DNA from: Escherichia coli
Lineage (GTDB): Bacteria; Pseudomonadota; Gammaproteobacteria; Enterobacterales; Enterobacteriaceae
Direction: 5' to 3' (one strand)
DNA: 64,000 nt
Assembly: GCF_003334765.1 (NCBI RefSeq)
Contig: NZ_QOWT01000003.1
In this document: piece by piece, positions 2,777-3,409 of the stretch
How the letters are laid out: every line of letters begins with the position of its first letter
Numbering within the stretch: position 1 is the stretch's first letter
Translations under genes and position numbers: made by a program
Notes under the pieces: generated by a model
What the model was told of the DNA's origin: nothing
What the model saw: only the letters and a program-made list of their open reading frames with translations
The model's database searches: none

Positions 2777-3409
2777 TCAATGTTGGACCGAATGTGAACG
2801 AATAAATAATTCGTTTATTTTACCACCCATTCTCTTTTCGATTCGTTGCTTGTACGCGTAGATGCTACGGATATCCATATCCAGAACTTCAGCAATCTGA
2901 TATGGATTATAACCAGAAACCATATACCCCATTATGGTGAATTCCATCTGAGTTAATGTGTTACCTCTGGTAAATGATAAATAACGACCAATAAATAGTT
3001 GTCTGATCTTTTCATTGGCAACATCAAGACCATCATCATTATATATGACAGCAGATATTGCTGAGTTGTGTTTTCGCCAGTAATTAGCTAACGATTGCAT
3101 ATTGCGGTCGCTGACTAAAACAATCCCCATGTCAGTACTTGCAAGATAGTCAATCCAGTCTTTTTCAAGGAATAGACGTAAAAAACTTACTGAAAAATCG
3201 ACAAAAATATATCCGCTTAATCTCGCATTGTGGTTTTTTGTTAAGATACCTTCTACCACACCACGATTAAAATATGAACTTTCTTCGGGCCACATACAAA
3301 AACACGAGTTTGCGCAATACTGCAAACGCGGTGACTCTTCTGGCATTATTTGGCAATGCATTGAGCAACTATTGCATGTAAGACTTTTATAACGACTACA
3401 AAGCCCCAT
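2777..3409 (-). CDS. yqeH: LuxR/GerE-family transcriptional regulator YqeH
   Basis: C-terminal LuxR-type HTH (NPYQIAEVLDMDIRSIYAYKQRIEKRMG); ATG at 3409 preceded by GGGAGG gives 210 aa; track ORF extends to 3469. Confidence 0.75.
   Translation of the reverse strand: MGLCSRYKSLTCNSCSMHCQIMPEESPRLQYCANSCFCMWPEESSYFNRGVVEGILTKNHNARLSGYIFVDFSVSFLRLFLEKDWIDYLASTDMGIVLVSDRNMQSLANYWRKHNSAISAVIYNDDGLDVANEKIRQLFIGRYLSFTRGNTLTQMEFTIMGYMVSGYNPYQIAEVLDMDIRSIYAYKQRIEKRMGGKINELFIRSHSVQH

Follow-up and report, generated by a model that had tools for sequence, protein, structure and literature searches.

A conserved four-cysteine module and a receiver-like domain in the LuxR-type regulator YqeH of Escherichia coli

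The gene yqeH of Escherichia coli probably encodes a LuxR-type regulator of the EcpR/RmbA group, in which a GerE helix-turn-helix is combined with a pseudo-receiver that would not be phosphorylated and with a putative metal site formed by four cysteines, here called Cys4. Neither the gene itself nor its domain family is new. The searchable literature and databases do not describe the conserved Cys4 module, how widely it occurs (RmbA of the Salmonella pathogenicity island SPI-3 included) or its association with adhesin loci; the only annotation given there to YqeH, RmbA and related proteins is "helix-turn-helix transcriptional regulator".

A Cys4 site on a receiver-like fold, in regulators whose genes stand upstream of adhesin genes, bears on the signals that control adhesins and on the regulatory modules of ETT2 and SPI-3. 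The E. coli genes yqeH-yqeI-yqeJ are now also linked to rmbA-fidL-marT of Salmonella.

The yqeH gene and its upstream signals

The window, i.e. the whole stretch of 64,000 nucleotides that was analysed, is a part of the E. coli chromosome and contains the yqeG-yqeH-yqeI-yqeJ end of the ETT2 island. The coding sequence of yqeH lies at 2777..3409 on the minus strand (210 codons plus stop), as judged from its translation, from the RefSeq annotation of identical loci (yqeH, product "helix-turn-helix transcriptional regulator") and from its orthologues, which are 50–82% identical. The annotated gene order is yqeG, yqeH and yqeI, then yqeJ, yqeK, ygeG and ygeH. Two of the neighbours were assigned from their open reading frames and RefSeq annotation. 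The downstream neighbour yqeI (1634..2443, minus strand) encodes a ToxR/MarT-like winged-helix regulator and is homologous to the gene at the MarT position of the Salmonella locus. The gene yqeJ (1159..1653, minus strand) is FidL-like, and the Pfam family YqeJ_C matches the gene at the FidL position in Salmonella. As the annotated yqeJ product has 160 residues, its true start is probably near 1641.

The longest mechanical open reading frame of yqeH has 230 residues and opens at a TTG at 3469. This start was rejected because the TTG falls in the -35 hexamer of a promoter-like site. The site is a predicted sigma-70-like promoter (3441..3469, minus strand) with TTGACA, a 17-nt spacer and a TG-extended AATTAT, and has 10 of 12 matches in a consensus scan. 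TTGACA and GAAATTATG are conserved upstream of the yqeH orthologues from other species. The sequence also contains a Shine-Dalgarno element, GGGAGG (3418..3423, minus strand), 8 nt upstream of the ATG at 3409, and it is kept as GGGAGG, AGGAG or GGGAG before the orthologues of other species.

These signals bear on the question whether the cysteine-rich stretch is translated at all. It could be an annotation artefact if translation really began at M22 or at M40 and the codons before it were an untranslated leader. In some database entries the first residue does correspond to M40, as in a 195-aa protein of Citrobacter koseri, and the EcpR profile covers YqeH only from about residue 31 onwards. 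However, the strong Shine-Dalgarno element before M1 is conserved, the amino-acid conservation reaches M1, and the cysteine motif is conserved at 25–40% identity in many genera. Using the DNA of seven orthologous genes from other species (49–82% protein identity), pN in codons 1–39 is 0.03–0.33, like in the rest of the gene, and far below pS, which is 0.55–1.0 with saturated synonymous sites. The cysteine region is translated and evolves under purifying selection, and we consider an artefact extremely improbable. From this constraint on codons 1–39, the database entries that start at M40, such as the one from Citrobacter koseri, are likely mis-starts.

Further upstream, at 3824–3858 on the minus strand, the yqeG stop codon is closely followed by a 16-bp hairpin and a T-run. 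To judge from its sequence, this element resembles an intrinsic terminator and would set yqeG apart from yqeH. In a published table of genomic SELEX results, the spacer between yqeG and yqeH has a peak of the RpoS holoenzyme.

A 1.5-kb query around yqeH is matched by 5388 of 5426 complete E. coli genomes; at least 80% of the stretch (window 2400–3900) is covered in only 3717 of the 5388. The best genome matches include IS1 and IS5 insertions in or beside yqeH. Many YqeH proteins in the databases are truncated, or have the cysteine module swapped for a foreign N-terminus (MLNALPNNARRV...), and one allele has a deletion of four residues between C19 and C32. The gene yqeH is frequently disrupted within E. 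coli. Avian pathogenic E. coli with yqeH deleted shows lower motility, biofilm formation, adherence and virulence (PMC9014576); this is the one functional study of YqeH that was found, and it mentions neither domains nor cysteines.

A receiver-like domain joined to a GerE helix-turn-helix

The C-terminal part of YqeH is a GerE/LuxR-type helix-turn-helix DNA-binding domain (residues 151–204; 2798..2959, minus strand), supported by Pfam, by PDB profile matches and by hhalign. Pfam GerE (PF00196) matches residues 151–195 with E=6.6e-5, which places YqeH in the LuxR/GerE superfamily, and the same family is matched at E<=0.001 by 53 of the 94 aligned relatives. When the family profile was searched against the PDB, the helix-turn-helix domains of the NarL/FixJ-family proteins EvgA, DesR, RcsB, VraR and NarL were found (best E=1.3e-11). 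In the hhalign alignment of the family with RcsB, the helix-turn-helix only is aligned (RcsB 148–196, probability 95.5%). The preliminary description had recognised this domain, and the Pfam and PDB matches agree with it.

That description had also seen a cysteine-rich region rather than a receiver domain in the N-terminal part, and no phosphorylation pocket around an aspartate. At the level of profiles, its failure to recognise a receiver was justified. A Pfam scan of YqeH gives nothing in the N-terminal 150 residues, Response_reg (PF00072) matches neither YqeH nor any of the 94 relatives, and the autoinducer-binding domain (PF03472) is absent from YqeH. The structure model gives a different answer. 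AlphaFold with the 94-sequence alignment yields pLDDT 91.6 and pTM 0.88, and the N-terminal domain of this model has the alternating alpha/beta fold of CheY. The view that a cysteine-rich region takes the place of a receiver is not supported, although the absence of a Pfam match in residues 1–150 stands. With only nine orthologues the model was unusable for residues 1–62 (pLDDT <50), and the larger alignment remedied this.

The first part of the model consists of strands 10–12 and 20–22, helix 29–35, strand 37–40, helix 45–56 and strand 67–72. It continues with helices 74–80 and 84–90, strand 95–100, helix 102–114, strand 118–122 and helix 128–139, after which the helix-turn-helix follows. The nearest solved structures to the N-terminal domain are the regulatory domain of CsgD, MrkE, VpsT and ordinary receivers. 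The core of the pseudo-receiver covers residues 37–140 (2990..3301, minus strand) and is a part of Pfam EcpR_N (PF27348), a family present in the precomputed annotation of the YqeH clusters and of all homologues. If strand 20–22 and helix 29–35 are counted as beta1 and alpha1, the model would contain a full (beta-alpha)5 fold with the cysteine site at its N-terminal edge. The motifs of the core family are W40-P41, F69-V-D71-F-S73, W85, D101 and L107-A108-x-Y110-W111.

The phosphorylation pocket is only partly present. The acidic pair that follows strand 1 in receivers is absent, the consensus of the 94 relatives being WP-[DE]-x-N. There is also no conserved lysine after the last strand: position 123 is tyrosine in 36 of the 94, and lysine is not among the five commonest residues there. 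D71 is kept in 73 of the 94 relatives and D101 in 76. When aligned by hhalign to CsgD, D71 in the F-V-D-F-S motif appears to pair with D59, the acceptor position. In the 94-sequence alignment, a serine, threonine or cysteine is found at position 100, the end of the strand that follows the D71 strand. Of the aspartate pocket that had not been recognised, the lysine and the acidic pair are indeed absent, and D71 is a candidate acceptor. The input domain is indeed atypical, as had been proposed: on the model, it is a degenerate receiver-like fold with an aspartate at the putative acceptor position and the rest of the pocket missing. The cysteine cluster is an N-terminal addition to this domain, or a part of it, and not its replacement.

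It can be asked whether YqeH is an ordinary phospho-accepting response regulator with a receiver too diverged for the profile models. The CheY-like fold, the conserved D71 that aligns with CsgD D59 and the residue at position 100 would fit this. However, none of the 94 relatives matches Response_reg, the lysine and the acidic pair are missing, and no kinase gene, histidine kinases included, is found next to yqeH or in the related loci examined. The relative EcpR/MatA also acts independently of phosphorylation (PMC5651002). We regard this explanation as very unlikely. Phosphorylation, e.g. by acetyl phosphate, could still occur, since D71 is well conserved at the putative acceptor position, and an orphan kinase may be encoded elsewhere in the genome.

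We suggest instead that kinases most likely do not phosphorylate the EcpR_N receiver-like domain, which would probably serve for dimerisation or for binding a partner, as in EcpR/MatA and TviA, both of which work with RcsB. The output would be DNA binding by the C-terminal GerE helix-turn-helix. By analogy with EcpR/MatA and TviA, YqeH may also have RcsB as its partner.

The cysteine module

YqeH contains seven cysteines, C4, C12, C15, C19, C32, C36 and C38. The dense N-terminal cluster noticed earlier is real, as all seven lie within residues 4–38 and the other 172 residues are free of cysteine. The chance that seven random cysteines fall in one given stretch of 38 residues out of 210 is (38/210)^7, about 6e-6. 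The cysteine-rich module (residues 10–38; 3296..3382, minus strand) comprises C12, C15, C19 and C32 together with the clade-specific C36 and C38. Its elements in the AlphaFold model (strands 10–12 and 20–22, helix 29–35 and the beginning of strand 37–40) have a pLDDT of 80–88.

Nine full-length YqeH orthologues (49–82% identity) all retain C12, C15, C19, C32 and C36; one of them has lost C38, and C4 is specific to E. coli. A search of 1.84 billion representative proteins with the profile of the YqeH family gave 176 matches. Among 85 full-length representatives (50% clustering), 26 contain C-x2-C-x3-C-x(6-16)-C just before the conserved WP. The four positions behave as a unit in the 94-sequence alignment, where all four cysteines are present in 32 sequences and none in 44; another four have the first three cysteines and a shifted fourth. 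When all collected sequences are pooled, the spacing C-x2-C-x3-C-x12-C-x7-WP is constant in 106 of 109 distinct modules. The module consensus is [VIL]-[RHT]-C-I-S-C-E-L-S-C-[QE]-[LIV]-[FY]-P-[DE] ... R-x-Q-Y-C, and relatives with as little as about 25% identity retain the motif, RmbA of Salmonella SPI-3 among them. The expectation that the cysteines are conserved among homologues is thus borne out for C12, C15, C19 and C32; it does not extend to C4, nor to C36 and C38, which are conserved in some clades only.

Joint all-or-none conservation with a constant spacing is what a tetra-thiolate metal site would be expected to show. YqeH has the four conserved cysteines of Cys4 metalloproteins, which co-occur with a fixed spacing, and the site formed by C12, C15, C19 and C32 probably binds a metal. 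In this arrangement, the thiolates would hold the metal and thereby pin the hairpin at the N-terminus to the receiver-like domain, at its first helix. The module is dispensable for the basic fold, because it is missing from true EcpR and from roughly half of the family, which function nevertheless.

The identity of the metal was judged from prior expectation. A structural Zn(Cys)4 site, possibly labile to oxidation, is slightly favoured; an Fe-S cluster, either [4Fe-4S] or [2Fe-2S], is the main alternative and a serious one, though less likely; and a Cys4 site without metal appears rather unlikely. If the cluster were responsive to O2, NO or iron, then YqeH, RmbA and their relatives would be redox or iron sensors that couple the expression of adhesin or virulence genes to anaerobiosis or iron supply. 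The arrangement of three close cysteines and one remote (C-x2-C-x3-C-x12-C) resembles many [4Fe-4S] sites, as in ferredoxins, FNR and radical SAM proteins. The strict conservation with constant spacing, the additional conserved C36 and C38 in the YqeH clade, and hosts that are facultative anaerobes of the gut would also agree with such a sensor. However, structural zinc sites with a three-plus-one spacing exist as well, e.g. C-x2-C-x2-C-x7-C in the structural zinc lobe of alcohol dehydrogenase. Moreover, the module resembles no known Fe-S protein sequence, and no Fe-S related Pfam family is matched by YqeH or the 94 relatives. We hold the Fe-S sensor as a tentative proposal only. A search of PDB sequences with the profile of the cysteine module gave no match even at E<=10, and YqeH does not occur in the accessible part of the supplement text of an AlphaFold survey of Fe-S and Zn sites.

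A metal-free role, in which the cysteines form a thiol/disulfide switch or are simply buried structural residues, is unlikely. It would be in line with C-x2-C, a classic redox motif, and with the six to seven cysteines in 38 residues of the E. coli clade. However, four cysteines that come and go together with an invariant spacing are typical of tetrahedral metal sites and not of a single disulfide, and YqeH is cytoplasmic, with no signal peptide in its sequence. As a signal peptide is missing, the reading of "LTC" as a lipoprotein motif was rejected as well.

Returning to a metal-bound Cys4 site, it can be speculated that the metal is a labile centre, either an Fe-S cluster sensitive to O2, NO or iron or an oxidation-sensitive Zn-thiolate, and that it switches the pseudo-receiver LuxR regulator. 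We give this idea limited credence. If it is true, YqeH, RmbA and the Cys4 regulators at the EcpR position would be unrecognised redox- or metal-sensing regulators of adhesins in Enterobacterales, and would provide the first Fe-S or redox-Zn input on a receiver fold in the FixJ/NarL family. If Cys4 is a structural zinc site only, the gain is a modest improvement of the annotation.

Two giant repeat proteins, P0119 (2470 aa) and P0198 (2132 aa), also matched the YqeH profile with E=1e-19 and 1e-4. They were rejected as relatives because these scores are the sum of 12–17 matches of 3–9 bits each. Their repeat (…SSAGANGTISPTPSATVNYGASQHFSIAPNSGYHVDSLIVDG…) is free of cysteine and aligns to profile positions 10–56.

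Relatives and known systems

The genomic neighbourhood of the relatives was studied in contigs from one genome per species, in which loci were located by the degenerate DNA pattern WP...FVDF...LAxYW, a pattern biased towards close enterobacterial relatives. It matched at 52 places, of which 48 are genuine and four are chance matches (L017, L029, L031 and L059). All 48 genuine loci are from Enterobacterales, and 44 of them contain the Cys4 motif. The host genera include Citrobacter, Kluyvera, Trabulsiella, Pseudocitrobacter, Pantoea, Serratia, Leclercia, Yokenella, Shimwellia and others, and the host species include Klebsiella oxytoca and K. grimontii. Several genomes contain two or three paralogues of the family regulator.

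An adhesin gene follows the regulator directly on the same strand in 25 of the 55 loci examined: a MisL-type autotransporter in 13, an EcpA pilus operon in eight and chaperone-usher fimbriae in four. The autotransporter next to the regulator in Citrobacter werkmanii scores 1892 bits on the MisL equivalog, and the EcpA homologues score 293–312 bits. We suggest that members of the family would usually regulate the adhesin genes in their immediate vicinity. In E. coli, yqeH has no adhesin gene behind it, so the targets of YqeH may differ.

On 60 resistance plasmids, most of them conjugative, there is a 5' piece of a YqeH-like gene of Kluyvera, with an identity of about 78%. In plasmid pME-1a (NZ_CP041734.1; L064:4001-4540) the order is ISCR1, blaCTX-M-9, the truncated regulator and mcr-9; the Cys4 motif of this regulator is intact and its helix-turn-helix is cut by IS1. 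Relatives also appear in AFDB under the name "Orf3/QacEdelta1 fusion protein". In Kluyvera (L013:9005-11529), an open reading frame about 1 kb upstream of the regulator has an N-terminus that by appearance is like a CTX-M-type beta-lactamase, which suggests a joint mobilisation of both.

Among known systems, the RcsB auxiliary regulators offer one comparison. They are small FixJ/NarL-type proteins that work without phosphorylation and form heterodimers with RcsB; EcpR/MatA and TviA are among them, and the MatA-RcsB pair is independent of RcsB phosphorylation (PMC5651002). MatA belongs to the same family as YqeH, and YqeH weakly matches BglJ in the helix-turn-helix. The TviA profile is weakly matched by some Cys4 relatives and not by YqeH itself. 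Two Cys4 regulators upstream of ecpA homologues (L050:2094-2711 and L015:9698-10363) give weak full-length matches to TviA, with E=3e-8 and 3e-6. This suggests that TviA, the regulator of the Vi antigen and a partner of RcsB, is in the same superfamily as the Cys4 regulators. Given the membership of EcpR/MatA and the TviA matches of the relatives, the family touches two known RcsB auxiliary regulators. We know of no characterised RcsB auxiliary regulator that carries a Cys4 motif.

The LuxR-type biofilm regulators CsgD and VpsT likewise have atypical receivers, of which that of VpsT senses c-di-GMP through a motif. They are, however, only 9–13% identical to YqeH and, unlike YqeH, do not have the Cys4 module.

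EcpR/MatA, the regulator of the E. coli common pilus operon, is closer. Like YqeH it is a small LuxR-type regulator with an EcpR_N receiver-like domain and a GerE helix-turn-helix, and we group both with surface structures. The NCBIfam EcpR model (NF047921) aligns to residues 31–202 of YqeH with E=1.7e-20 and 73.8 bits, against a curated cut-off of 300 bits; YqeH is therefore outside the EcpR equivalog and not an EcpR orthologue. In contrast, a true EcpR (P0124) reaches 356 bits; its sequence begins immediately ahead of the WP motif and has no Cys4 module. Unlike ecpR, yqeH is not beside a pilus operon. The EcpR position upstream of ecpA homologues is occupied by several Cys4 relatives of YqeH, which score 33–53 bits on the EcpR model and, judged by their sequences, are not EcpR orthologues. 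In Pseudocitrobacter and Entomohabitans, two family regulators flank an ecp-like pilus operon (L015:2838-3476 and 9698-10363; L039:1256-1918), one Cys4 regulator standing upstream of ecpA and the second regulator converging on the far end of the operon.

The other close system is RmbA of Salmonella SPI-3. The Salmonella enterica locus contains a 205-aa Cys4 regulator, a 955-aa autotransporter, a YqeJ_C (FidL) gene and a Trans_reg_C (MarT) gene, and we take the position of the regulator to be that of rmbA in rmbA-misL-fidL-marT. In UniRef and AFDB, relatives are named "RmbA family" or "RmbA"; in the literature searched, rmbA is found only as the name of an SPI-3 gene, with no mechanism given. 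RmbA resembles YqeH in its EcpR_N domain, its helix-turn-helix and the spacing C-x2-C-x3-C-x12-C-x7-WP, and the proteins of the RmbA group are about 36–42% identical to YqeH. However, RmbA is without C36 and C38, both present in YqeH, and it is followed by the MisL autotransporter, which yqeH does not have; the gene order and orientation also differ. The complete four-gene set is found in Citrobacter werkmanii and C. portucalensis (compare window 1159–3409, and L063:8001-13068 in Salmonella). As FidL and MarT are homologous to YqeJ and YqeI, the E. coli set yqeH-yqeI-yqeJ corresponds to rmbA-(misL)-fidL-marT, with the autotransporter missing.
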